This document shows, piece by piece, positions 635 through 62,100 of a stretch of DNA of 64,000 bases. The stretch lies in assembly GCF_037042905.1 (NCBI RefSeq), contig NC_087251.1, positions 24,864,001 to 24,928,000 of the forward strand, written 5' to 3'. The position numbers and the translations under genes are program-made. The DNA comes from Lytechinus pictus (Eukaryota). A model generated the notes under the pieces. It did no database searches, was not told where the DNA came from, and saw only the letters and a program-made list of their open reading frames with translations. Numbering within the stretch: the stretch's first letter is position 1; each line of letters starts with the position of its first letter.

Positions 635-760
635 ATGGCCGGTGAAATATCTCTGGTGATGCGACTGATGTCGGCATCAGTGTCGATAGCAAACAGAGCA
701 GGGTCCATTGTGAGGGATATCATGAAAGCAGGAGATTTGGGGGTTGTCATGAAAAATCAG
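635..760 (+). CDS. BPNT1: BPNT1 first coding exon, variant A (MAGEISLVMRLMSASVSIANRAGSIVRDIMKAGDLGVVMKNQ)
   Basis: ATG at 635 in GAGATGG context; 42 codons ending CAG|GTAAGA (phase 0); resembles the BPNT1 N-terminus (LMRL..S..SIA..AG.IVR....GDLG.V.K). Confidence 0.9.
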
Positions 761-3499
761 GTAAGAGGAACTAGAAAGTCAGAGTAGTAACGGTGCAGAC
801 ATGTCGCATGTTTGTAAACCATGATTGGATGTGATGCGATGTGTATGCATGAAGATCTACTCATTTTAAGGTTGAAAGATTTGTGGTGTTTAAATGCTTG
901 ATACGAGGGGGGGGGGGGGGGTGAAAGAGAAATAAGTGCAAAATTATTATCATGGTGGACCAAAACTGAAGAACTTGAAAATGGACTGGGTTACAAAAGT
1001 TGAGATCCAACATAATTTACACATATCATTATCAGAAATGTTTGTTAATGCCATATTAATCTCTAATGTTCTCTTTTTATTATTAAGCAGCATTAATAAT
1101 GATGTTAGGCTGATTAAGATTTATGAATGGATTTGACATTAAATTTTGTGTTTATAGTTAAATGTTTGGTGCAGTCAGCACAGTGACTATTTCATTATTT
1201 CAGCAAAGTAGCAAACGTGCATATATCCACATGATCTCAATCAAACAAGACTAGCAATAAGCTAAAACTTTCCATCTGCATTAGGGTGACAGATATTCAT
1301 AAAAAAAATTGAGTTCTGTTTTATTCATGCAAAGGGCTCAAGATGCAATCTTTCTCATAAAAGAAATTGAAGTTTGTGTAAAATGGATGAGTACTAGTAA
1401 GACAATAACTATACAAGAGGGATGTACTCTAATTGAAGAAGAAGAGTTGTGATTTTTTTTTAATGTAAAAAATGATATACATGTATGGATGATTTTCCTT
1501 TAAAAATGAAACATTACAATTAACACAGCTATAATTTTATTGCGATTCTTGGTATATTTTTCTTCAAAATATGATATGGTAGGCCTATTGATTTTTTTTC
1601 TTTGTAATTATTACAGAAATTCTTATTCTATTGTAAATTTTAGGTGCAATGATAACAGAATTCCACAAATGTATGGCTTCAGTGCCCCCCACCCCCCCAA
1701 AAAAAAGCCCTGCTTTCTGATATTTCACCAAAAAATAGTTAACCCTTGGGTAGTAAAATTATTTTATTGTTAGAGATTTACAAGTTGAAGTGAGAAAGGA
1801 CTGTTAACCCCCCCCCCAAAAAAAAATGTTATGCAGAATTGTTACCTGTAGGCCTACATGTAGTTCTATGTATACATGTACATGCTATATAAGATTATGA
1901 TGTTTGAAAATGTATCGGTACACAGTCAGAAGGTGTTAGACAAAATCAACAATTTCCTTTTCTAAGGGTGTCCAAACACTATGCAATATTGAAAGAAAGA
2001 AAATATACTGATAGCTTTACTCCAATAGCAAGGTGATGGCCAAACTATCACTTCCAAGGCACGCTGGAAGTAGATATCTTTTGGATGTTAGTTATCTTTC
2101 CAAAGTGAAGCGGAAGAAAGATAGTTTGTACATCCAGCCCACAAAGAAGTGATAGTCCATCTCGTCTCCCGGAATCAAGAGGTGATTCTTTGCTTTTATC
2201 TTAAATATAACTGAAGAATACAATATTAATAATAAAAGAATTAAATGTAAAAATTAAGGTTTCCTAATCCCTATTTAAGCATGTCTATTAAAGGTTTTGG
2301 CAAAGGATCAGTAATTTGAACTATACTAGTGTCATAGAACATTGTAATATTACAATGTAGTAGTGGTCATTGAATGCATTTCTACCTATATAGCATTTTT
2401 CTGGCACTTATGATTTAATTCAAATCTAGTGCCCTCTCTCATTATTTTTTTTATTTATATTTAAAATAGCCATTTGTGCACCAACCTAATCATATTTCAA
2501 AGCTAATGACATGATTATATCCTGAAATTTTCAGCCCATTCCCTGCTTGAGAAGGTCTTTAAAAAGAAGAATGCAGATATTCTATTTAAATGAGGTACCT
2601 GAACATATTAAATTGTGATGTAAAATCTGTAAGTTTATCCGATAAAATAAATTTCTAGTTTATATTGATATTCACAATCCACATCACAGCCATTTTGGGG
2701 CATCATACAATGTAATGGAGTAGTGGCATGCAACTTTGAGGGGGATTTACCAAAAATAAAGATAGGTTTTTGAAGAAAAAAAATCAATGGAGTCAATGCA
2801 GATAGATGCTTGTTGCTTGTGTATTGTGGAAACTGCCTTTAAATAACTCTATGTTAGCGAGGTAATTGTGATGTCTTCTTTTGCATTCATTCAAAATCAT
2901 TCATAGTGCGTGATTATGACTATGTTAGCAGAAGGGATCAGCAAAACAAAAAAGTTCAATTATTTACCATGGGCACATCCGGCCTTATTACACCAATCTA
3001 ATATCCTATCCAAATGAAATGAATTTAAACATTTTCGCAAGATACATAGCCTATAGTTAGCTTTAGATTTAGTTCCTCATCCTTAGACTTAGACCTTCTA
3101 GACCTGAAATACAATGTAGGTGTGCTGACTGCTGCACTAACACTACTAGTATATGTTAGATCTCTTGCCTAGATAGACACTCAGGTTGTGTTCAATGTCG
3201 GTTCCCAAATTTAAATGGCAACATGAATCATAATTGAAAACGTGATTACAAAACATGGATATAATGACAATGTCCTCCATTCCGCCGTAAAAGTAAACAT
3301 CTTTCAAAACACGATTCAGAGGAAAATTCAAACGTCGAAAAAGATGCATTTGTAAATGCGATCATCTCGGATTTTACAACCTTCAGCATCACAAATGCGA
3401 CATTGAACACAATTGAGTTTTGAAACGTCATGCTCTCTCAAAGAAGCCTGCACAAGCAGGTGCCAGAATTGACCTTTCTTGTCATTGGTCAAACTGCAC

Positions 3500-25310: not shown

Positions 25311-26761
25311 TAGAGGCGTCGATCGAGGGGGGGGGGGGCAGGGGGGCAATCGCCCCACCAACAAAAATATTGGAGGGGAAGCATAGCGTTTTGCCCCCCC
25401 CCCAAAAAAAATAATTCTGTAAGTGTAAAAAGAAAATAAAGTTACACAGAAATGGGCAAATTAACCAAATAGTATAAAATTTTGTTTTTACATCTGTAGT
25501 ACAATACAAAATTATGATTTTCTGCGCGCGGGAAATGATTCCATCTATCGTTGTAACTTTTACACAAGAATTTCAATATATAGGCATTCCTTTTTGCCAA
25601 TGAATAAACAAGAAAATGGCAAATGCCTTTTTATAGGCTGATCCAGGTAAGTTATGTATACCTCTAAGTTGATTTTAAAAAACTACTTAAAATTCCCCTT
25701 TTCATGACAGTTTTATCATAAATTTCGGCTAGCGATTTGCGCTCATATTGTTCAAAAAATGTACGTACCCATGCATCCTATTCATTATTAAAAAAGTGAT
25801 TAAAGTGTCCAGTTTTCAGGTCTTAATATCAACAAATTTCGCGCTCTCATAAGGCTTATTAGATATATAAATTAATTAATAACATGTCCATGAATTCCTA
25901 ATAATTACATTACCCCTTTTTTCAGAATGGAATATTGGCAAGTTCATCTAGAATTTAGAAAGAGGAAAAGGAAGGTAGTCATTATTTTTATATTATGAGT
26001 ATGACAAAATGTCCTTAAAATGTCCCGATCCTAGGTCAAAAATATTTAAAAAATTCAGCTTGCACTTCGCGCTTGCACCGTTTATTAAATGCTTACCGTA
26101 ACCACTTCACATTTACCTACATGTACACAGTGCTTGAAATGATGCTTAAATTGACCCTTTTTCAGATCGGAATATCACCTTTTTTTTCAGCTTGCACTTC
26201 GCGCTCGCATTATTGATTTTCATAATAAAAGAAATGTATTTAGAATGCCCAGATTCTAGGTCTAAATCTAAAACATGCGCACGCATGTTTATTGAGATAC
26301 ACAGCATGTTCTTTATTTAAAACGCACTTGAATTATCCAGTTTCGCGCTCCTATTATTAATGTAGGAAAATACCCAATTATCCATCCTTTTCATGATTTA
26401 CGAAACATAAAGAAGTGTCCCAGTTTTAGGTCTAAATCTCATTTTCCCTGCTCGCACTTCGCGCTCGCATAAATTGTTTTGTTATATACCTATCCCGTTC
26501 ATGATTACAAAAAGTGGCTAGAATGACCAGTTCTTAGGTCGGGGTGGCAAAAATTTTCAGCTTGCGCTTCGCTCTCGCAGTAATAATTATTTAATTTTAT
26601 ACGCATTTTGTTCAGGATCACAAACATTGCTCAAAATGTTTAGTATTATATATATTTGCATATGTATGTGCAAGTTTTGTGTGATCGAGTGCCTATGGAA
26701 TGTTGATTCATGATTTTGTCCCCCCCCCCCCCCCATCTGAAAAAATAGATCGACGCCCCTG
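25311..26761. mobile_element. hAT-like MITE
   Basis: TAGAGGCGTCGATC / GATCGACGCCCCTG; 8-bp TSD ATATTAAT. Confidence 0.85.
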
Positions 26762-43832: not shown

Positions 43833-46146
43833 TATACCTCTCTTTAAGAATGTCGAATAATCCGTTCCTCTGATTGGTCAAAACTGAGGTCATGTATACG
43901 ACCATGCCTTCAAAACAACAAATTAAGGTGGTAACCAAGGGCAACGGGCATAGTTCACAAGATTTCTGCCCGTTGCCCCCTGATCCGCCCCTTAACAACG
44001 GGCATGGTTAAAATTTGGTGAAATTCGCATTTGTTTACGTGCAAAAATTGCTCTGTGCGATGATTGCGGATACCATAATTTCACCGCGATTCGTGGTCGA
44101 TAAATTCAGACAGCTCGCGCGTTCGACGCGCATACGCGCTGCGCAGACGATCATTTCGCCGTAAATTATCGATTAAGCGGATCGCTAATTTGCAGACTAG
44201 TACTAGGCCCAGGTCTGTCCCTACGTTTCATCTCTTTTTGTTCTAAAAACGCATTTTTGGTGCATGATGGCAGAAGCTAATCTTCCAAGATTTGAACTCC
44301 TTGATGATGATCAATTAAAGGATTTAATGGACTCTGCGGACAGTAAGAACACTAAATGTGCAGTTAAGTATGCCTTGAAAATTTTCGAAGATTACTTGTT
44401 GCAAATCAACTCAGACCTTAGTAACGTAGACAAGCTGTCTAACTCTGAACTGGACCGCGTTTTGCAGAAGTTTTATGCTGGTGCTAGACAGAAGAACGGT
44501 TCGCTTTACAGCAAGAAATCAATGTTATCCATCAGATTTGGACTTCAACGTCATTTCCTTAGTTCGAAGAATGTAGACATTATCAAGCACGATGATTTTG
44601 CCAATTCAGCGAGAGTTTTCAAGTGTTTCTCGGCAACTCTCAAACAGAAGGGCAAGGGATTTGTGAAACACAAGCCAGCCATTTCACCTGAAGACATGGA
44701 GAAGATTCAACGTTCACTTGATTTGGATGATCCACAAGGTCTTCAAGATAAGGTATTTATTGATGTGATGTTGCATTTTTGCAACCGTGGCAGAGAGAAT
44801 TTGCGAGAAATGACAGTTGACAGTTTTGAAATTTGCGAAGAAGAAGGAAAGTGTTCCTACATTAGTTTCAAAGATACACTCACTAAAAACAATCGTGAAG
44901 ACAAACTAGAAAAAAGCCAAGGGGGAATCATTGCTCCAACAAATGGATCACGTTGTCCTGTTGCCTCATTCCTTCACTACAAAAGTAAACTGAACCCACA
45001 ATGTAAATGGTTCTGGCAAAGACCAAAACCTAAGCATGATCTTGATCCAGCTTCATTTGGTCCATGGTACTGTAATGCTCCCCTGGGGAAGAACACCATC
45101 GGAGATAAGATGAAAACGATTTCATCTCGTGCTGGAACCAAAGTCTACACCAACCATTGTTTGAGGGCTACCAGTATCAGCACCCTTCAAAATGCAGGAT
45201 TCCGAGATAGGGAGATCATGAGTGTGTCAGGTCATCGATCAGAAGGGAGTCTCAAACACTATGCTAGTACAAGCAGTGATACAAAAGAGAACATGAGCCG
45301 TGCTATCGCGACAGCTGTTGATCAAAATAAATCAGCACCAGCCGGACCTGGGCCTAGTACTAGATCTACAACAGAAATCCCGGAATCTTGTCTGACTTCT
45401 GGTGCAAAAAGTGAGAGCCAGGAACTCCGTGAATTGCAGCAAATACTGGACGACTTCACAAATAACAGAGAAGTCCTTGCACAACCAGCTCGGCCAACAT
45501 GCAATATCACAACGAATAGTCATGCTCATCTGTCAAGCCATCAAGTCCAAGCCCCAAACTTCAACATCCAAAACTGTGTTGTAAACATCTACAATAAATA
45601 ACAATCTCTCGCCTTCGGTGTATATATGTTTGAAGTTCAACAAGTTTTCATTGAAAATGTTACTGTTCGCGTGTTTGAAAAGAAAACTGGATCTTTGACT
45701 TTGTAACTTTGGTGTTAAGGAGTTCTACTTTAATAAAAGACTACATTTTGGATTGAAATTGAGTTTTAAAGTTAGTCGCCTGGATAAACTTTTCAAGGTC
45801 TACTATTGTTAAACTGTTTTCTTCTAAATATGACCCCCAACGTAAGAGTAATGAGATGACAGGATCACATGACATTGACAATGACAGGTAAGGCATTTCC
45901 TTTTTTTTTGTATAGATCTAGGCCTAATTCAAATATTATGCTTAAGATAAGTTAAACTTAATTCGGCATATAAAACATATATTGACTGCTTTAATATTCG
46001 AGGCATGGTTATTTCCATAGGCTCTCGGGTACCTACAACTTGCTATGACCCCGCGGCGCAAGCGCCTTGGGGTCATAGCAAGTTGTGAGGTCCCCTCGAG
46101 CCTATGGAAATAACCATGCCTCTCATCGCAGTCAATATATCTATAC
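43833..46146 (+). mobile_element. Full-length Crypton-like DNA transposon in a RING-gene intron, antisense to the host
   Basis: Single YR ORF, no long TIR; TATAC direct repeat at 43833..43837 and 46142..46146; CTGATTGG box near the left end; long 3' hairpin 45977..46140. Confidence 0.8.
44264..45601 (+). CDS. Crypton-type tyrosine recombinase (DUF3504/CryptonA-like), 445 aa, intronless
   Basis: Catalytic R175 (RGRE), K208 (TKN), H298-x-x-R301 (TNHCLRAT), H324 (SGHRS), Y333; family motifs SKNT, CPV, FWQRP, WY...PLGKNT; AATAAA at 45732. Confidence 0.92.
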   Translation: MMAEANLPRFELLDDDQLKDLMDSADSKNTKCAVKYALKIFEDYLLQINSDLSNVDKLSNSELDRVLQKFYAGARQKNGSLYSKKSMLSIRFGLQRHFLSSKNVDIIKHDDFANSARVFKCFSATLKQKGKGFVKHKPAISPEDMEKIQRSLDLDDPQGLQDKVFIDVMLHFCNRGRENLREMTVDSFEICEEEGKCSYISFKDTLTKNNREDKLEKSQGGIIAPTNGSRCPVASFLHYKSKLNPQCKWFWQRPKPKHDLDPASFGPWYCNAPLGKNTIGDKMKTISSRAGTKVYTNHCLRATSISTLQNAGFRDREIMSVSGHRSEGSLKHYASTSSDTKENMSRAIATAVDQNKSAPAGPGPSTRSTTEIPESCLTSGAKSESQELRELQQILDDFTNNREVLAQPARPTCNITTNSHAHLSSHQVQAPNFNIQNCVVNIYNK

Positions 46147-47108
46147 TAGAATGCCACTGGTTTTAGATGGTCGGTTATTTTTATCCACCTTAACACTGTA
46201 ATGAGTAGGTGCCTTAAATAATTCACCAATAAACCTGGTCTTCATAGTTTTGGCCATGGGCAAGTAAAAAAAAAATTGTGGATTAAGCAACGGAGCTTGC
46301 CCTTATTCAGTGAGGATCAACAAGGACAATAACATTACATATGTGTGAAATTTTTATGAATGCAAATGAATGTATTCTGGGGCGGCATTCTGAACATTGT
46401 CTCTTCTCCATATTTTATCTTTTCTCAGAGGTGTGACAAAAATCAGTATTCTGGTGGATGTCATAACTTTTGTCTAAAAATTATCATAAATTTTGTCTCC
46501 TCTGTTTAGCGTGCACCAAAAATATGCGGCTTGAAATGTGCGTAATCTTTTTATACAAGCAAAAGATATTAAAAATTTATGACAAGGGGATAGCAGTCAT
46601 AAATTTTTAAAAGTACCAAATATCCCGATACCCTGCCGACTGAATGTCAAGCATATAATATTATTTAGATTAGATTGAGGTATTAGTTTCACTCATAATC
46701 CATGACAAGTTTGAAAATTATTTATTCATGCTACAATTACATGTAGTTAGGCCCTACATATTCATTCTTCCTTTTTTATCTGTTTACATTCTTTTTATAT
46801 TTCTCTTCTAAAATCCCTCACAGCTCCATCTCTCTTTGTCATTAAGTGCATCAATATATAATACCAGCCCTGGATACAAGAATTTGAATAGATACAGCTA
46901 AACCATAGGCTACAACACAGCTGTTGTGGGAGGATAGTAAACTTTAAAATGAGTCAGTGAGTTTAGAGAAGACATTTCTTTCTCCATAATAATTGATACA
47001 GAATTTTCAGAGATGCAGATCACACTCAGAGATGATTTTTTTTTGCCTCCCCCATCCTTCTGGATAGTTTGATTCTTATCATTATTTACATTAGATGGAT
47101 TTGCTTAC

Positions 47109-47270
47109 CGGACATTTGGAAACGCAGAATCTTGTTGACATGATGGACATTTTTTCATTCCCTCCCTTCTTGTTTCCTTGCTGTCATACATGCATCTTAC
47201 ACAGAATCTATGCTGGCATTTCCCAGTCACCATCTCCAGGCGTGGCTGCAAGCAGATGCCACATTCAATC
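47109..47270 (-). CDS. RING-HC (C3HC4) exon of a putative E3 ubiquitin ligase (IECGICLQPRLEMVTGKCQHRFCVRC...KKCPSC)
   Basis: Pyrimidine tract plus CTACAG acceptor, CG|GTAAGC donor, phase 2-2; C-x2-C...C-x-H-x2-C-x2-C...C-x2-C spacing. Confidence 0.88.
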
Positions 47271-47373
47271 CTGTAGATTTGAAAAAAAAGGGTTAGATCT
47301 AGAGACTTAGAGCATAAGTACAACTCAGGAGATAGAAAGTAAGGCAAATTTGGATGAAAATCAAGAAGTTGAA

Positions 47374-47610
47374 TATTATTAGACTGCATGCAGAAGAGTA
47401 ATTGGCAAATTTTGTCCTTGATATCTTGAATTGTGGGACAATGTCAAAACATTTATGGAATATTGGATGGCCTTGAGTGGGATGCGAAGAAATATTGTAC
47501 GAGCTGAAGAACAATATTGGTTGAGTCGAAGACGAATCAAGTATTGTTCTTCAGTGAAAGACAATATTTCTACGCATCCCACAAAAATTGGTAATTCAAT
47601 GCTATTATTA
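47374..47610. mobile_element. Putative non-autonomous Crypton-like mini-element with bulged hairpin
   Basis: TATTATTA direct repeats at 47374 and 47603; imperfect hairpin 47477..47582 with a GTC-GAA-GAC tip close to the right end. Confidence 0.5.
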
Positions 47611-51507: not shown

Positions 51508-54014
51508 CAGTGTTGTAGTGCCTTGATGCTCGGCCTTGGCCTTAAGGCGCCTTAAGGCCTACTTTTTCAAAGCCTTGGCCTTGAGAGGGCCTTGGCCTTG
51601 GGGACTTTGTCACCATTATCAAGAATTGTCAAACAAAGAATACATCAGTTATGAAAAATAGCATTATGTATTGATAATGTGTTGTAATCATGACTAATGA
51701 TGATAATGACAGTAAATAATAATGATCATGATCAAGATAATAGTGCTTTGATGACAAGAATAAATTTGATATCTGACTGCAATTTTGACAACAATTTTCA
51801 TACTTTAAACATAGCTAATTCTAAAGAACGATAACAAGGTTGATATATATTCCATTAGGATTTTCCTTGTATTATTTTCTTTGGCCAACAAGAATGATAT
51901 TCTGAAAAGATTTGGTAAACTTGAACACAGTCTTCAATTTTGTCATATCCAAATAGGTTATGTCAATGGCATGATGAGCCAGAAACTTTGAGGGGCCAAG
52001 CATGGCATATAGAGCAAAATTTCTGTCAAAAAAAAGAAGAAAACGATTGAAGCGAGCAAGTGAACAAAATTTGTCCCCCTCTTTCTATATAGGAAAAGCT
52101 AATTTTGCGATAGATTGTTTAAAAAATAATTTCACATTTACTCCATCTTTTCCTTTCCCTTTCTCCCCTTGTCTAAGTTTATTCTTGGTGGTGGAACTTC
52201 TTCTCTCTATCTCTTTTCTAAATTGTATATTTGTTTTGGGTCAGATTGACAAAACAAAGGGGAAAAAATGTTTACTTCTTTTTAATAATATATCGTTCAA
52301 CAGTGAATTTCATGTCTCTACAGTTTCAAGGAAATAAACAACGTATTTGTTTTGTGTCAATATGGTTTCAAGAAATAATAATTGATGAAAAAATAATAAT
52401 TGAATAATTAATAATTATCAATATTATCAATAAGTATTAATAATTAATGATTGATTAACTGTTTAAAGAAATAATTAAGATTTACCCTCTCCCAACTAAG
52501 GATATGGGGTGCACCCTGTTTATTTTATATCCTTTTGAATATAACTTTATTTTGTTAGTATTCTTTATTCTGTTGTTTAAGGTAAAATAAGTGTAGAAGA
52601 TACAAGAAATGAGAATTGAAATTTAAAAGTGGTTGTAAGCAGAAAAAAATATGAAAACTGACAAGTCCTAAAAATGACTCATTTTCAGTTTAAGCATTTG
52701 AAAATTTTAGCTTGCGCTTTGTGCTCTCTTGCCCCCCCCCCCCCCCAAAAAAAAATCCCTGTAGGATTTTTTTTTCCAAATGAAATATGCCCTTTTTAAA
52801 AAAGAAATATACCTTCTTTAATAATAAAACATAATACATTTTAGGCTCGAAAATCACAGATTTTGAATCGTGCTTGCATGAATTCTTGTTTAGTACAGTA
52901 CTAATCCTGCTCATGGTTACAAAAATGTATAGAATGTTGCTTTATGGTTGGAATATCAAAAAAATTTGGCTCGCTTCCTGCACTCGCATCAATTATTGTA
53001 CTCGTTCTCTTCCCGTTCACAAAAAAAAAATGCTTAGAATGTCCAGTTTTCAGGTTGAAATATCACAAACTTTTGAGCTCGCGCTTTGCGTTCGCATTAT
53101 ATTTATTGGTGAGTTATGTATCCTATTTAAAATGCAGTAAATAATTGCTTCCTTTACTGGTGAGTATATAAAAAAAAAATTAGCGAGCGTACAGTTATTT
53201 TTAGTTACACATCTTTTTCATGATTACAAAACCAGCTCAGAATATTTAATTTCCATGTCTTATTACACGACATGTCAAGAAGTTTGAGCTGGTGGTTCGC
53301 GCTGGCAACATTGCGCAAGGATGCCCTTTTAACAATGATTAGCCCCATAATTGACCATAAATCAAGTCTTACAACTTTTTTTTCAAAACCGCTTGCTCGC
53401 TATGCTTTGCCGCTGAGAAGTAAAACCTAAATCAAAATATCTATCTTATAATTAAAAATCACTTTATAAAGCCTTTGCTCAACTTAATTTCTACAAAACA
53501 CACAATTACTTCACGCAGTTCATAATCTCATTTTGAAAATACACGTATTTGTTTGCACCAAAAACTCATTTTGATAAATGAGTGCCTTTTTGGCGTTGAC
53601 CCCCCCCCCCCCCCAATAATAATTTTCTGCTGCCCCTGTCCCAGGGAGTGGAGAAAAACATACGTTGAGAATGCCAGGATCAGATGACCGTGGTAATAAT
53701 AATTATTGCAATGAAAATTGCCTAAAAAAATTATGGATTATGTGTACACAGGTAACTATATCATTATTTTAATATGTCTCTATCATGAAATTATTTTTGT
53801 TTTAAATGTACAAAGGTTAAATTTTTTCTCGCTCAGTCCCCTCGCTCACATACATTTTTTACCATGTGTGATGTCTGCCGCCTAAGTATTGTTAGTTCAT
53901 TGTTCTGTATATCGTAAGTTTGAAATGCCTTGGCCTTGAAGTTTTCAGGCCTTGGCCTTGGGTTTCCATGCCTTGGCCTTGGCCTTGGAGGTTTGAGCCT
54001 TGGCTACAACACTG
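51508..54014. mobile_element. Non-autonomous hAT-like element with GGCCTT subterminal repeats
   Basis: TIR CAGTGTTGTAG / CTACAACACTG; (GGCCTT)n near both ends; absent from the sister arm; no clean 8-bp TSD. Confidence 0.7.
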
Positions 54015-54428
54015 AATAGCCGACTAATGCCATGGTTAGCTTCGAGTTGGTTAATTCCGAACTTTACGTTTAATTAGGTTTAGACAGATGTTAGCTTATT
54101 TGCCATGGTTTGTCTAGTACGTATACAAAACCAGTCCTAGATCTAAAAAAAAATCATTTTAGTTTGAGTCTAGTCTCTAGATCTAGACTCTGATCTACGC
54201 TGTATAAGCATGGAACCACTAGTGCATCAAAGGGGGGGGGGTGCAGACTGCCCCTCTGACGAGTCACAACTGATACAGGGGACGTGCCCACCGGTTGAGA
54301 AGCCAAATTAATAATGAACGTGAAGATTTTTTTTTTTGGGGGGGGGGGGGCTTGTCACATTTTTTCGCGGAAGAAATATCCTCGAAAATTTGCCCCCCTT
54401 TTGGAAAATCCTAGGTACGCCAGTGCAT

Positions 54429-55923
54429 CAGTGGCGTAGCTACGGGGGGGGGGGGGCCTGGGGGGCACGTGCCCCCCCCCCCCCCCCTGAGATTTGATGT
54501 GCCCCCCCCCCCCCAGAAAAGAAAAAGGAAAAGAAAAATAAAGACAGAAGAAAAAAAAGAAGAGGAAAATAAGGGGAGGAAGGCGAGTGAATGAAATAAT
54601 GTGAGGGGAAGACTTGAAAAGAAAATCTTTCATGTTAGTACTATATAAAATTTTTGCTTGCGCTTCGCGCCAGAATTGCCTGTTCGATGAGATTCATATC
54701 TTGCTCAATAGGCTGATATGGAGCAAGTCAATATACAAAACATAATTTAGCTCGGACTTCGTTCGAGTTTTCATTATTTTTTTTTTCATTTACAAATTTA
54801 AGTGCTCTGTAAAATGTCCGTTTTATGGTCTAACATATCAGCATTTTAAGCTCACGCTGCGTGGTCACATTGTTTGATTTGCCAGGTTCATAATGTCTAC
54901 GTGTATTCCATAATGTTCCATTAAACAAATGTATTTAGAATGCCCAGATTCTAGGTCTATTATCTAAAACATGCGCGATAGCCTGCATGTTCTTTATTTA
55001 AAATGTACTTAAATTATCCAGTTTCACATCAGAATATCAATAATTGTCTGCTCACGCTTCACGATTGCATTATTAATGATATCCAATTAACTATATCCTA
55101 TTTATGATTACAAAAATGAATAGAGTGTCCTGCTTTTAGGTCTAAAATCTCAATTTTCTTCCTCTCGCGCTCCGCGCTCGCATTAATTGTTTAGTTACAT
55201 ACCTATCCCATTTATTAATACAAAAAGTGCTTAGAATGACACATTTTTTAGGTCGGAATGTCAAAAATTGCTCGCGCTTCGCGCTCGCATTATTGAAATA
55301 TATACCGTCTTCGTGGGTGTGTGTATTTGAGTTTTGTCAGACGTGTATCAATCATATATGATTATTTACGTCTGGGACCGACCTTTAACGTCACCATCCG
55401 AAAGACGTGACCAGGGCTCGAACCTCGAACCTTTGCATCAATTTGTAACTTCCCCACAGCTTGGATTACAGGCGCACGCCACAACGCCTAGTTGTAACTG
55501 AAAGCAGTCCTTAACAGGTCCCTTTTCGATAATGCTAGAACAGTTAATACAAATTTCTGCTCGTGCTTGGCGTTTGCAGTAACCATCTAGTTACATACGA
55601 ATCTTGTTCAGGATCACACATACCATTGCCCATAATATTTTTTAAAAAATCGCTCGCGCTTCGCGCTCACACTTTTTATAAGGCTAATGAGATTATTTCA
55701 TGTTTATGTTGTTTTATAAGAATAAAACTAAGAAGTGACTGATCGGGGAAAACATAGGTGAAAATAATTTCGGGCCCCGTCCCCTATTGGCGAAAGTCCG
55801 ATCCGCTCTTGTGACACATACACACACACCGGAAAAAAATGGCCGGTGCCCCCCCCCCTGAAAAAGCAAGGACCCCCCAGTGCCCCCCCCCCCCCAGGGA
55901 AAAAAATCCTAGCTACGCCACTG
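54429..55923. mobile_element. hAT-like MITE
   Basis: TIR CAGTGGCGTAGCTA / TAGCTACGCCACTG; perfect 8-bp TSD CAGTGCAT. Confidence 0.88.
55317..55492 (-). mobile_element. SINE with 7SL/Alu-like head, B-box and Deu/Nin-like core
   Basis: Minus strand: CTAGGCGTTGTGGCGTGCGCCTGTAATCCAAGCT ... GGTTCGAGCCC ... CGTCTTTCGGATGGTGACGTTAAAGGTCGGTCCC ... (AC)n tail. Confidence 0.7.
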
Positions 55924-56888
55924 CAGTGCATGGAACGTATTCTAACGTCAGGCACAAACTAACGTCAGTGATCTTGATCCCCGTCTTCACCCCAAATTAA
56001 GGATTTCTTAGCTGAAAAAATTTTGACAAGCAAAAAAAAAGATCTTCACGTTCAAAAGAGGGCACATAAGTCTTTTTTGGTTGCATTTTGACATTACAAA
56101 TTATTAATTTGGCTTCTCAACGGGGGGGGGGGGCCTGTCCCCTGGATCAGTTGTAAATCGTCAGGGGGCAGTCTGCCCCCCCCCCCTTGGCACACTAGTT
56201 GTTCCATGCTGATACAGCGTAGATCAGAGTCTAGATCTAGAGACTAGACTAGAACTAAGATATTGTTTTTTTTAGAGCTAGGACTGGTTCTGTATACGGA
56301 CTAGACATATTAAACCATGGTAAATAAAATCAAACGTAAATTTCGGAATTTAACGGTCCGAAGTTAACCATGGCATTAGTCGGCTATTACTATTTATTAG
56401 TATTAGGCATTAGACAGGTCCAGATTTGAGGTAAAGTTAATGCGCTAGCCTAAGCTAGCCCTAGCCTAGCACATGTCTTGCCATTAATGGCAGCTAGATT
56501 GATAAGTGTTTAAGAATTGGATATATATATATATAGATCTAAGCCTGTAAGGCCTATGTAACTATGTAAGGGTACCGGTAAGTTGACGATGCTAATTCAT
56601 TCTGAGCAACTGAACGTGATTCATGCTTACGACCGGCACTGGTCGAGGCAAAGTCCACGCGCATGCGTACTCTTAATCCGAAGACGCAAGTCATGAATAT
56701 TCATATGTTGGTCCAGAACTCGGTGGGAAAAATAATTTCGCGGCCGGGCTGCCACACAGTGAGGGTGCAGCTGGCTCTTTAAATTTTAAATGGCCAGGCG
56801 GTCGACGCGGTCGACATTACCCTCCCGGCCCAGCAAGCAGACCAAACTCTCGATCTCTCTCAATAATAACATCGCCAACGTCACTTAC

Positions 56889-57388: not shown

Positions 57389-59130
57389 CAGTGGCGTAAC
57401 TACGGGGGGGGGGGGGGCATTGATTGGGGGCACGTGCCCCCCCCCCCCCAATCGGCTGGCAAAAAAAAAGAACGGAGGAAAAGGAGAAAAAAGGAGAAAG
57501 AAGGGGAAACGTAGTGGGGAAGAAGAAATTATAATATTTTTTTTCGATCGTAGCTTTATGAAACATAATTTGCTTAGGGCCTATGCGTTCATCATTCCTG
57601 GTTCTTGCATTTTCTGTTTAATGAGATATTATAATCATGTTGTACTAATACATTCCTTTTCAAGTCAGTACACCAAATATTTCCTCGCACTTCGAGTTAT
57701 CGTTATTTTTGGTAGTAACGTATGCTTCTTTTACATGAATATTGAAAGTGATTGCCCCCTTTTAAAGGGATGGTCCGGGCTGAAAATATGTATATCTTAA
57801 TACATAGAATAGAATTTACTGAGCAAAATGCCGAAAATTTCATCAAAATCGGATAACAAATAATAAAGTTATTGAAGTTTAAAGTTTAGCAATATTTTGT
57901 GAAAAAAGTCGTCATGAATATTCATTAGGTGGGCTGATGATGTCACATCCCCACTTTCCGTTTTCTTATGTTATCACATAAAATGATATTTTTTCATTAA
58001 TTCATACTTGTGTGAATAATAATGATGTCTCCCTTATAATGAAATAAGTTGCAGCAATAAATATCTAATGCACTAAATCAGTTGTCAATCCAATTTTTCT
58101 AGTTCTTGGAGGAAAAAAATTTGAATAAACCTAATTTCATGTAATAAAATACAAAAGAACAAGTGGAGATGTGACATCACCAGCCCACCTAATGAATATT
58201 CATGACAACTGTTTTCACAAAATATTGCTAAATTTTAAAATTCAATAACTTTGTTATTTGCTATTCGATTTTGATGAAATTTTCGGCATTATTTTTGCTC
58301 AGTGAATTCTACTCTTATTCATTAAGCTATAAATACTTTCAGCCCGGACCATCCCTTTAAGGTCTAAATATAAAACATGTCCAGTCTGGGCTTACGTTTG
58401 CATTAGTGAATTGGTGACATATGTCTGCTCTTCATGAATTCCTAAAAACAATCCCCAAAATGTCAACTTTTCTGGTCTGAATATCCAAAGTTTTCAGCTT
58501 GCGCTCGCATGATTTGGTTAGTGATATACGTATATGATCTTAGTGAATTCTATATAAAAACAAGCCTTAGAATGCCCCTTTTCATGTGTGAATTTCAAAA
58601 ATTTTCAGCTCGCGCTTTGCGCTCGCAATATTTGATTAGTGAGATACATATCATATTCATGATTTCAATGACTAAAAAAAAGTGCTTCGTGTGTTAAGGT
58701 GTAATTCTAACAAAACCAGCAAGCGCATATTTGGCGCTCTCATTAGATGACTATGGTGAGATATGTACGCTCTTCATGAATAATACCTTAAAAAAATTGT
58801 CCTTAAAATGTCATATTTGGGCTTAATATATACAAAAATCTAAGCTCGCGCTTCGCGCTCGCATTGCTTATTTAGTGAGACAGGTACGAATCATGATTAC
58901 AAAAATTTGCTTATAATGTCCTTTTTCACGTCTGAATATGAAAAAAATTCAGTTCGCGCTTTGCGCTCGCATTATTTGATTAGTGAGATACATATCCATT
59001 TAATGGCACAATCCTTAAAATGTCTCTATTAGGTTAGTATACCTGGCAAATTTCGCGGGCCCTTTAAGTGACTCAAAATTGTTGATGGTGTCCCCCCCCC
59101 CCCAATGCCGTGACCCACGGTACGCCACTG
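57389..59130. mobile_element. hAT-like MITE
   Basis: TIR CAGTGGCGTA / TACGCCACTG; perfect 8-bp TSD ATTATGGA. Confidence 0.88.
57766..58356. mobile_element. Kolobok-like palindromic MITE nested in 57389..59130
   Basis: TTAA flanks; long TIR AGGGATGGTCCGGGCTGAAA / TTTCAGCCCGGACCATCCCT. Confidence 0.8.
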
Positions 59131-62100
59131 ATTATGGACAACACAAAGAGAGGGACACTCACGGAAATAGAAGAAACTCCTGTTAATGAGGCTTCTATGA
59201 TCCCAAGCAAAAAGTTTATTTGAATAAAAAGAGGCAAATGAGACAAATATAATCCATCACTGAAAATTCCATTCAAATCGCATGTTGGCCTAATAGAGAA
59301 AATATAATTAGCATTCAATTTTCGTTTATTTTCAGAAAACAGACGTGGGCACATATCCTATATAGGCCTACATAACAATTATGGGAGCCGATGCCATGGT
59401 GACTCTTATAGACCTACTATTTCTTTTGTAAGCATATTTCAAAATAAAGAATTAAAAAGAAAATTACATAGATTTGATGGTAAACAGGGTCTCCATCTGT
59501 TCACAGTAAAACACATGATATATATATTTTTTTGCATTTTAACTTTTTTTTTTTGGAGGGGGGTAAGAAATCAAACCAAGTTTGAGACGGCTCCATGAAA
59601 GAATGAAAAAAACATATATATCATTGTTTTATGATTCGTTTTATGAAATCAATCGTTCAGATACAACATTTTTCATTACATAAAAACATAATTATTATGG
59701 TGATTGATATTTTTGGCATGGGCGTGATGAATTAAGTGTACTATAACAAAAATAATAATTCCAAACAAAAACGATCTTATACCAAATTATCATAATATTC
59801 ACAAGGGCCGCGGAACATATTTGAAATTAAGTGGAGGGGGGGAAGGCTGAGCAGAAAATGGGGGGGGGGGGGTTACCTTATAAAAAATCACAATCAGATG
59901 ATGATTTTTGTGCGTTTTACTGAAAAATTGGGAGTTGAAGCCTCCAGCCCCCCCCCCCTCCTCCCCAGTTCCGAGGCCCGTCTCAATTTGCAGGAGGACT
60001 GTCATCAGCAGATTGATTGAGAAAAATGGATTTAACTCTTTTGCCTTAAAATGAGTAAAGAGAAAGAATCTTTTATAGACTCTCAGGGGAGGATCGTGCT
60101 TTCCCTTATATGGGGGGGGGGGGGGCGAAAAATAACTACATCCGCTAAAAACTGAATTTTGCTTTTAATTTTTTTTTAACCGGGGCTGGTCCTAACTAAA
60201 GACTGAAGTTAAAGTACATAATAAATATATTATTACGAAAAAGATAAAGTATAGGCCCATCTCATAAATAATGAGAGTGCGAAGCGCGAGCTCAAATTTT
60301 GGGAGATTTCCTGTAGCATTTTGTTTGTAATCATGAATAAGATTCGTATCAATATTGTTGATGTGAACGCGAAGCGCGAGCTAAGTTATATATATTAACC
60401 AAAAGGGAAACTTTTAAGCCATTTTAACATCTAGAAAATTGTGAAGAGGATATGCATCTCACTCACTCGAATATAGTGCAAGCGTGAAAAGCGAACATTT
60501 TTTTTCTCATTTGGACCGGGATATTCTAAGCGCTATTTTATTCCATGCAGGATGCGTATCAAATAAACATTAATGCGATTGCAAAGAGCGAGCTACATAA
60601 TTGATATTCCTATATTAACCTGAAAAGGGAAATTTCAAGGATTGTTTTTTTTTTTAATTCACGGATCTCACCATTTATGATGCAAGCGCATATAGCTCTT
60701 GATTTTTTTTCGGCACCTATCTCAATAAAATAAAATAATGAAAATAAAATCACAAGCAGAATAATTTGAACGTTTCAAGCACTTTTATTTTGAAGAGGAT
60801 ATGCATCTCAATCAAGAAATAATGCGAGCGCGAAACGCGAAATTACTTTTGCGATTTAGAATTAATGAAAAATAACGAGCAGAATAGAACCTTTTAAGCA
60901 CTTTTTAACATCTAGAAAATCGTGAAGATTATGCATCTCACTCAAGAAATAATGCGAGCGCGAAGCGACATATTTTAAGCCCAATGTTATCCTCTTTATT
61001 AAATAGCAGATAATCACTCAACATGTCAAGCAAACGAACGCGAAGCGCATGCGAAAGTTTTTTTATATAATTACCTAAATGTTTTTGTTTCTATTTTCTA
61101 ATGTTATTATTAGTCTTCCCCAATTTCACTCACCTTTCTTCCTCCTATTGTCTTTCTTCCTTTCTCTGCTTCTTGTTTTCTTTTTTTTCTTCCCTCCCTT
61201 TTTTAAGCTACGTCATTAGGGGGGGGGGACTTCTCCCCTGGATAATGGGCTCTGCAGGTATAATAGAGTTCCGCAATGAGCAATTTGTTGATTAAATTAA
61301 TTTCATAGAGTTAAGGGTAGATAGGGTATACATAGTAGGCCTATATAAGAATGTGGAATGACGATGTGAGAATGTAATATTTACGTTTATTACTTGTAAA
61401 TAAGCAGTAAACTTTGAAGTGAATTCGTATTAAGTACTGTCAGTCTTTAGCTTTAAATGTTGGGTTTGTTATATTGCGAGTCATTACAAATTCAAATGTC
61501 TTTCGAGCATTTTAAATACCCCCCGCGTACCCTTTCATATAACATTTATTTTTTGATGTGTATAACTACAAAACAAGCAAGGGAGTGAGCGGATTTTCAA
61601 CAACAAAAATGCAGAATTTACCTGCTTTCAGGCACGCGTCGTCGTGGAGGGGGGGGGGGGGGGGGGCAGGAGGGGCATGTAGGAATCACATGCCGTCAGA
61701 TGTTCGAAGCTGTATGTTTAAAAAATAGGTCTATCCTCTTGTGCCCCGGATCCATTTTCCCCTCCTTTTTTGTTTTGTTGTTGTTTTTAGTATTATTTTT
61801 GTTGCTCATTGTCAATATTTTTTTAGGAATAAAATGTAAAATATCTCAGTGATTACATTTTTTTCTACATTGTTTTATTCATATTCCATCAAAAAAAAAA
61901 ATTGCATTAAAGTTTAGAGTTATCATTGGAGCTATTATTGCAATTTGACACAGGAAAGGGTAACGACTTTCGGGGGGAGGAGGTGGTGAAAGAATCGTTC
62001 ATTCTTTTTCTGAAGTTTAATTACTTTTCTTTCAGTCTCCATGCAGGAGTCTCCACCATTTTACTTTTACCCCCACCCCCATCTCATACCTTCCCTTCTT

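Follow-up and report, generated by a model that had tools for sequence, protein, structure and literature searches.

A candidate SINE with a chimeric 7SL/tRNA head in the sea urchin Lytechinus pictus

Here we describe an insertion of about 175–180 bases in genomic DNA from the sea urchin Lytechinus pictus that has the build of a short interspersed element (SINE) and a 5′ end resembling 7SL RNA. It lies at 55313–55492, on the minus strand, of a 64,000-nucleotide stretch of contig NC_087251.1 (the window), within a non-autonomous DNA transposon. Read in the direction of the element, a 7SL-like head is followed by part of a tRNA-like head, a fragment of a Deu/Nin domain, a stem–loop and an A/C-rich tail. 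The element is modular and was inserted into a pre-existing repeat unit. An original prediction, made from the letters of the window, had named four of these pieces, and all four are present on the minus strand where it placed them.

The host locus and the insertion

The host transposon occupies 54429–55923 (1,495 bases; no strand assigned) and is bounded by perfect terminal inverted repeats of 14 bases, with an exact 8-base target-site duplication; no other duplication length between 2 and 12 was found at its flanks. Short terminal inverted repeats with an 8-base duplication are the features of a hAT-like miniature inverted-repeat transposable element (MITE), and we take the length of the duplication to indicate the hAT assignment. 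The same ends confirm that the element sits inside a host MITE, as had been predicted. Directly to the left of the duplication, 54405–54428 carries the same terminal sequence as the MITE (91% over 23 bases); the MITE thus integrated at the very end of a related element. Another repeat flanks the MITE as two inverted copies (54015–54315 and 56100–56388; 79% over ~310 columns).

Inside the MITE, the element interrupts a tandem unit of ~110 bases (55291–55579, minus strand). Units of this kind form five arrays in the window (25750–26640, 52730–53310, 54680–55680, 58500–59030 and 60260–61030), in which a GC-rich core of 20 bases is conserved, and are apparently borne within several MITEs. The spacing is 289 for the element-bearing unit, compared with 90–132 for the 16 uninterrupted units in the window, and the flanks of the element map to adjacent positions of the unit, which identifies the intervening ~175 bases as an insertion.

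Breakpoints were placed by pairwise scoring against the 16 units, a profile hidden Markov model of 8 units being too weak for the purpose. The 15 best summed breakpoints put the last host base at 55484–55492 and the next host base at 55310–55315, with an insert of 171–177 bases, and each end of the element is located to within about 4 bases. Single units gave inserts of 165–182 bases in 13 of 16 cases and of 191–207 bases in the other 3. The upstream flank scored higher against the first part of the 16 other units than did any of 100 shuffles; the score of the downstream flank against the last part of the units was equalled by 4 of 200 shuffles; and pieces of the insert, scored in the same way, match neither part. 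The breakpoints (~55490 to ~55313) fall where the 7SL match begins and where the tail ends.

A 7SL-like head

The first 46 bases of the element (55492–55447, minus strand) correspond to bases 1–46 of 7SL RNA, that is, to its 5′ Alu domain of two hairpins and a short closing stem. When 1,801 bases were searched on both strands against 4,227 Rfam families, the signal recognition particle (SRP) family Metazoa_SRP (RF00017) matched 55492–55437 on the minus strand with 29.1 bits (E = 3e-05). The next best of the 10 matches (up to E = 10) had an E-value of 1.5, and no tRNA or 5S model was among them. The alignment proper spans model positions 1–46 only, with 34 of 46 bases identical (74%) and one inserted base. 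The head that had been predicted to derive from 7SL RNA is therefore 7SL-like and not tRNA-like, but limited to the 46-base 5′ Alu domain. The 34-base Alu/7SL string quoted for it agrees, by eye, at the predicted 29 of 34 positions, starting at 55491 rather than at 55492.

Standard pairs are formed at 12 of the 14 base pairs of the model, and one of the non-standard pairs is non-standard in the metazoan consensus too. In the closing stem, two pairs differ from that consensus on both sides (the first of the changed bases may belong to the flank and not to the element), and two further pairs differ on one side. The changes that preserve pairing argue for a genuine, non-human 7SL source. Of the loop–loop pairs of the human Alu domain, two can still form. 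An A box at 55488–55479 (element bases 5–14) agrees at 8 of 10 positions with that of human 7SL as given in PMC7245038. By eye, the first 30 bases of the head are identical at 27 positions to those of the hagfish element SINE1-1_EBu. The element thus has the 7SL-homologous 5′ head by which SINE1 elements are recognized.

Body, core and tail

Between the end of the Rfam alignment and the tRNA-like stretch lies an A/T-rich linker of 14 bases (55446–55433, minus strand, as are all parts of the element), which may be left over from a tRNA anticodon arm or from helix 5 of 7SL. Behind it, 55432–55411 has the form of a tRNA-type variable loop and T arm: the T stem, with 4 of its 5 pairs made, encloses a 7-base loop, and the arm contains the predicted B box, which is confirmed at 55424–55414 (element bases 69–79). 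The B-box consensus occurs twice in the whole window by script, both strands counted. Compared by eye and without gaps, 55432–55404 is identical at 20 of 29 positions to the tRNA-derived head of the bivalve element BivaMD-SINE1_AsNo; the T arm and B box agree at 12 of 26 positions with the 7SL-derived part of the hagfish SINE. The complete tRNA-derived head of a SINE2 element, with an A box in the D arm, is reduced here to the variable loop and T arm, and the tRNA-like part, at ~29 bases, is shorter than the 60 bases of homology used in SINEBase. Behind the head, Rfam gave 3 matches, with no tRNA or 5S among them, and no SRP match in 55290–55455; ARAGORN called no tRNA gene in the whole window. 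For half a tRNA, the failure of both programs to report a tRNA is expected.

The next block, 55411–55375, matches the 5′ end of the Deu domain of AmnSINE1_HS in 28 of 37 columns, counted by eye against the alignment printed in the supplement of PMC7245038; for the remainder of that printed block, the element offers nothing clearly comparable. Because only the start of Deu matches, we tentatively assign the core to the 5′ end of the Nin domain, the part named Inv (PMC5804259) or alpha, with Deu and not an Inv consensus as the reference. Of the whole Nin/Deu domain of ~120 bases, the element has the first ~37 only, so that the Deu/Nin core of the original prediction stands as a block but amounts to the 5′ third of the domain.

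A 37-base stem–loop follows (55374–55338), a feature absent from the original prediction. It has a minimum free energy of −12.8 kcal/mol (z = −3.21), a stability reached by 1 of 300 dinucleotide shuffles, and its inverted repeat also appeared in self-BLAST. On this predicted fold, it is a candidate recognition signal for a long interspersed element (LINE) reverse transcriptase. The element ends in an A/C-rich tail (55337–55313, by direct reading); of the (AC)n tail that had been predicted, the richness in A and C holds, but the repeat itself is limited to (AC)4 at 55324–55317. No run of four T residues occurs within the element, the first being at 55267; judged by motif matches, the element would therefore combine A and B boxes with the absence of an internal terminator. 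Neither the tRNA-like part (z = −0.67) nor the whole element (z = −0.76) folds significantly better than shuffled sequence.

Presence in other sequence data

A 24-base motif from the body had no match in prokaryote genome contigs or in viral contigs, and the head-plus-core pattern had two matches in metagenome contigs, both of which proved on inspection to be unrelated chance matches. In an index of sequencing runs queried with 26 sampled words from a 251-base stretch, partial content was found in 20 of 24 among the runs listed (best share 0.69). DNA runs from three separate studies of one organism contained 0.50–0.69 of the sampled words (runs not aligned), and runs under a second organism label contained 0.46. 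Shares of 0.08–0.12 in echinoderm, sea-urchin and seawater RNA sets, also unaligned, constitute no evidence. The run shares indicate that this DNA exists outside the present assembly; they do not separate a polymorphic single locus from many copies.

Interpretation and alternative explanations

We conclude that the element is probably one copy, somewhat degraded, of a sea-urchin family of SINEs that has a chimeric head, in which the 5′ half of a tRNA has been replaced by the 5′ domain of 7SL RNA. The most fitting name for it is 7SL/tRNA chimeric-head SINE, and the chimeric build in an invertebrate host, as originally predicted, is supported. With somewhat less confidence, we favour the view that it represents the first invertebrate SINE family with a 7SL head, a fourth independent origin after those of Euarchontoglires, hagfish and shrew mole, and a new design, in which only the 46-base SRP9/14-binding domain was kept and joined to a B box of tRNA type, a piece of Nin/Deu and a stem–loop LINE tail.

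Several observations weigh against this interpretation. Self-BLAST of the window revealed no second copy, and no further copies were found in public contigs, which are poor in animal DNA, so that zero matches there are uninformative on copy number. The Rfam score of 29 is well below the family gathering score of 70 (because only positions 1–46 align), and a scan of the whole window at the gathering level returned no match. The 46 bases that match 7SL fall short of the length in the SINEBase definition, which sets a minimum of 60% identity to tRNA, 5S or 7SL across no fewer than 60 bases and of 100 interspersed copies. In the present copy one helix pair of the head is broken, the folding energy of the head is not better than that of shuffles (z = +0.48) and the second hairpin of its minimum-energy fold does not follow the SRP fold; the copy may be worn, or protein may be required for folding. 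All comparisons with published SINE consensus sequences were made by eye. Finally, no target-site duplication above chance surrounds the element: the longest exact match is 4 bases, seen in 2 of 490 boundary pairs. Elements mobilized by L2 or CR1 usually lack such duplications, and given this tendency, the missing duplication, together with the Deu-type body, may hint at L2 or CR1 as the partner.

Four other explanations were weighed. Although we consider it unlikely, the 7SL-derived part may extend to about base 85, with the B box having arisen by mutation in or beside the B-box region of 7SL, as in Alu, and with no tRNA parent. The B box is indeed placed as 7SL's own box would be (76–86 in human 7SL; PMC7245038), and bases 47–86 agree with the hagfish 7SL-derived SINE at 17 of 40 positions, in one register picked by eye. 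However, the Rfam alignment ends at model position 46, with nothing SRP-like behind it, and the stretch in question folds as a tRNA-like T arm and fits the tRNA-derived head of the bivalve SINE better.

Slightly less plausible still is a one-off or low-copy retrocopy, in which a single template switch joined a 5′ fragment of 7SL to an ordinary tRNA SINE and never founded a family. LINE activity is known to yield chimeras of this sort (PMC7245038), and the window holds one copy. The junction, however, keeps exactly the functional 46-base domain together with a usable spacing of 54 bases between the A and B boxes, which suggests selection for activity.

It is improbable that the element is an ordinary tRNA-headed Nin/Deu SINE with an A-box region that resembles 7SL by chance: an A box is common to both head types and the Rfam score is low, but the E-value holds across all families, the match spans the 7SL-specific junction and a closing stem with pair-preserving changes, and neither Rfam nor ARAGORN finds a tRNA in the head. 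Contamination by a human Alu or a chimeric assembly, suggested by the likeness of the head to the Alu 5′ end (the 29 of 34 positions of the quoted string), is highly improbable, as the original prediction had argued, given that nothing Alu-like is found by Rfam past base 46, that the head departs from the metazoan consensus by changes that preserve pairs, that the insert splits a host repeat unit into two halves that fit together and that half or more of the sampled words recur in the unaligned DNA runs of the three studies.

A possible mechanism

The anatomy of the chimeric-head SINE, together with what is known of Alu, suggests how it could have arisen and spread. A template switch or recombination would have put the 5′ end of 7SL RNA in place of the 5′ half of a tRNA head. 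RNA polymerase III could then use a split internal promoter, made up of an A box from the 7SL part and a B box from the tRNA part with 54 bases between them, and transcribe through the T4-free element until it met a terminator in flanking DNA. Bases 1–46 of the transcript would fold as an SRP9/14-binding domain, by which the RNA may be docked on ribosomes, and a LINE reverse transcriptase would recognize the 3′ stem–loop and the AC-rich tail, generating a copy at a new site by target-primed reverse transcription. In work on human Alu, a 46-base 5′ Alu domain was reported to be necessary and sufficient for SRP9/14 binding and to support retrotransposition in HeLa cells at ~86% of the activity of a full Alu (PMC12199147).

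Other features of the window

The candidate SINE lies in repeat-rich DNA ~21 kb past the last exon of BPNT1, the exons of which span 8744–34518. The longest BPNT1 exon is identical to the Lytechinus pictus protein at 97 of 97 residues, to that of L. variegatus at 96, to that of Strongylocentrotus purpuratus at 92 and to that of Paracentrotus lividus at 91, which places the host in Lytechinus and sets it apart from S. purpuratus. A second stretch that resembles the first coding exon of BPNT1 (638–784, plus strand; 53% over 49 residues) lies 8 kb upstream of the gene and is a paralog or duplicated exon.

Other repeats and frames were also recognized. An intact frame of 464 residues at 44207–45601 (plus strand) encodes a tyrosine-recombinase domain (Pfam Phage_integrase, E = 8e-07; DUF3504; QRICH1) and was read as a Crypton-type DNA transposon. 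An exon-like frame at 47108–47443 (minus strand) contains a C3HC4 RING finger. At 57762–58360, an imperfect palindrome of ~600 bases, 78% identical to its own reverse complement, is probably a foldback element or MITE.

Comparison with known SINEs

In the literature consulted, published 7SL SINEs are limited to Euarchontoglires, hagfish and shrew mole (PMC7245038, PMC13023118, PMC10886601, PMC5786205), and a paper of February 2026 likewise lists them for supraprimates, hagfish and shrew mole only (PMC13023118); the original prediction had named primates, rodents and their relatives, and hagfish, but omitted the shrew mole. No invertebrate 7SL SINE was found among the literature matches listed, with subscription journals, Repbase, Repbase Reports and Dfam lying outside the coverage. 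The sea-urchin SINEs that are named in the text consulted are SINE2 families, cited from Repbase for S. purpuratus.

A close counterpart of the head is that of SINE1-1_EBu from the hagfish Eptatretus burgeri (Kojima 2020; PMC7245038). Like the urchin element, it is non-mammalian, with an independently born 7SL head, a body and tail from an older tRNA SINE and a tail of short repeats in place of poly(A). It differs in having bases 1–96 of 7SL together with the 3′ Alu strand, a B box of its own, an RTE-derived body and tail and duplications of ~17 bases, whereas the urchin element has 46 bases of 7SL, a tRNA T arm, a Nin/Deu piece and no duplication.

Alu, B1 and Tu of Euarchontoglires and Urop of the shrew mole similarly begin with a 7SL 5′ Alu domain that includes an A box (PMC13023118), and it has been proposed that the leftmost unit of Tu II/III of tree shrews descends from both 7SL and tRNA (same source). 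These elements retain both strands of the Alu domain after a central deletion of ~183 bases, end in poly(A) and use L1; the urchin element lacks the 3′ strand and poly(A). Its alignment to 7SL ends at 46 with no SRP match downstream, which departs from the feature, shared by all published SINE1 families, of keeping both Alu-domain strands with the S domain deleted. As argued in PMC13023118, one central deletion that keeps both strands was the rare enabling step; an echinoderm element limited to the 5′ 46 bases would reveal another path to 7SL SINEs.

In its body, the urchin element resembles DeuSINE, Nin-DC and Inv SINEs, including SINE2-3_SP of a sea urchin (likened by description, not by sequence), in which a B box of tRNA type is likewise followed at once by the 5′ block of Deu/Nin; echinoderms are known to carry the domain (PMC4824008, PMC5804259, PMC4758252). 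The Deu, Nin and Inv SINEs described there have tRNA or 5S heads, and the urchin element has ~37 of ~120 Nin bases.

The 7SL part of the urchin element has the same length and position as that of SA46/AY46 (Moldovan et al. 2025; PMC12199147). The latter is a human construct that was engineered and is mobilized by L1 by way of poly(A), whereas the urchin element is natural; its head would be a natural match to the minimal domain that was defined in cell culture. If our interpretation is correct, the element offers a natural test of whether SRP9/14 docking on ribosomes aids retrotransposition by a LINE that reads a stem–loop and not poly(A), and an SRP9/14 advantage that is independent of both L1 and poly(A) would become testable in a laboratory animal.
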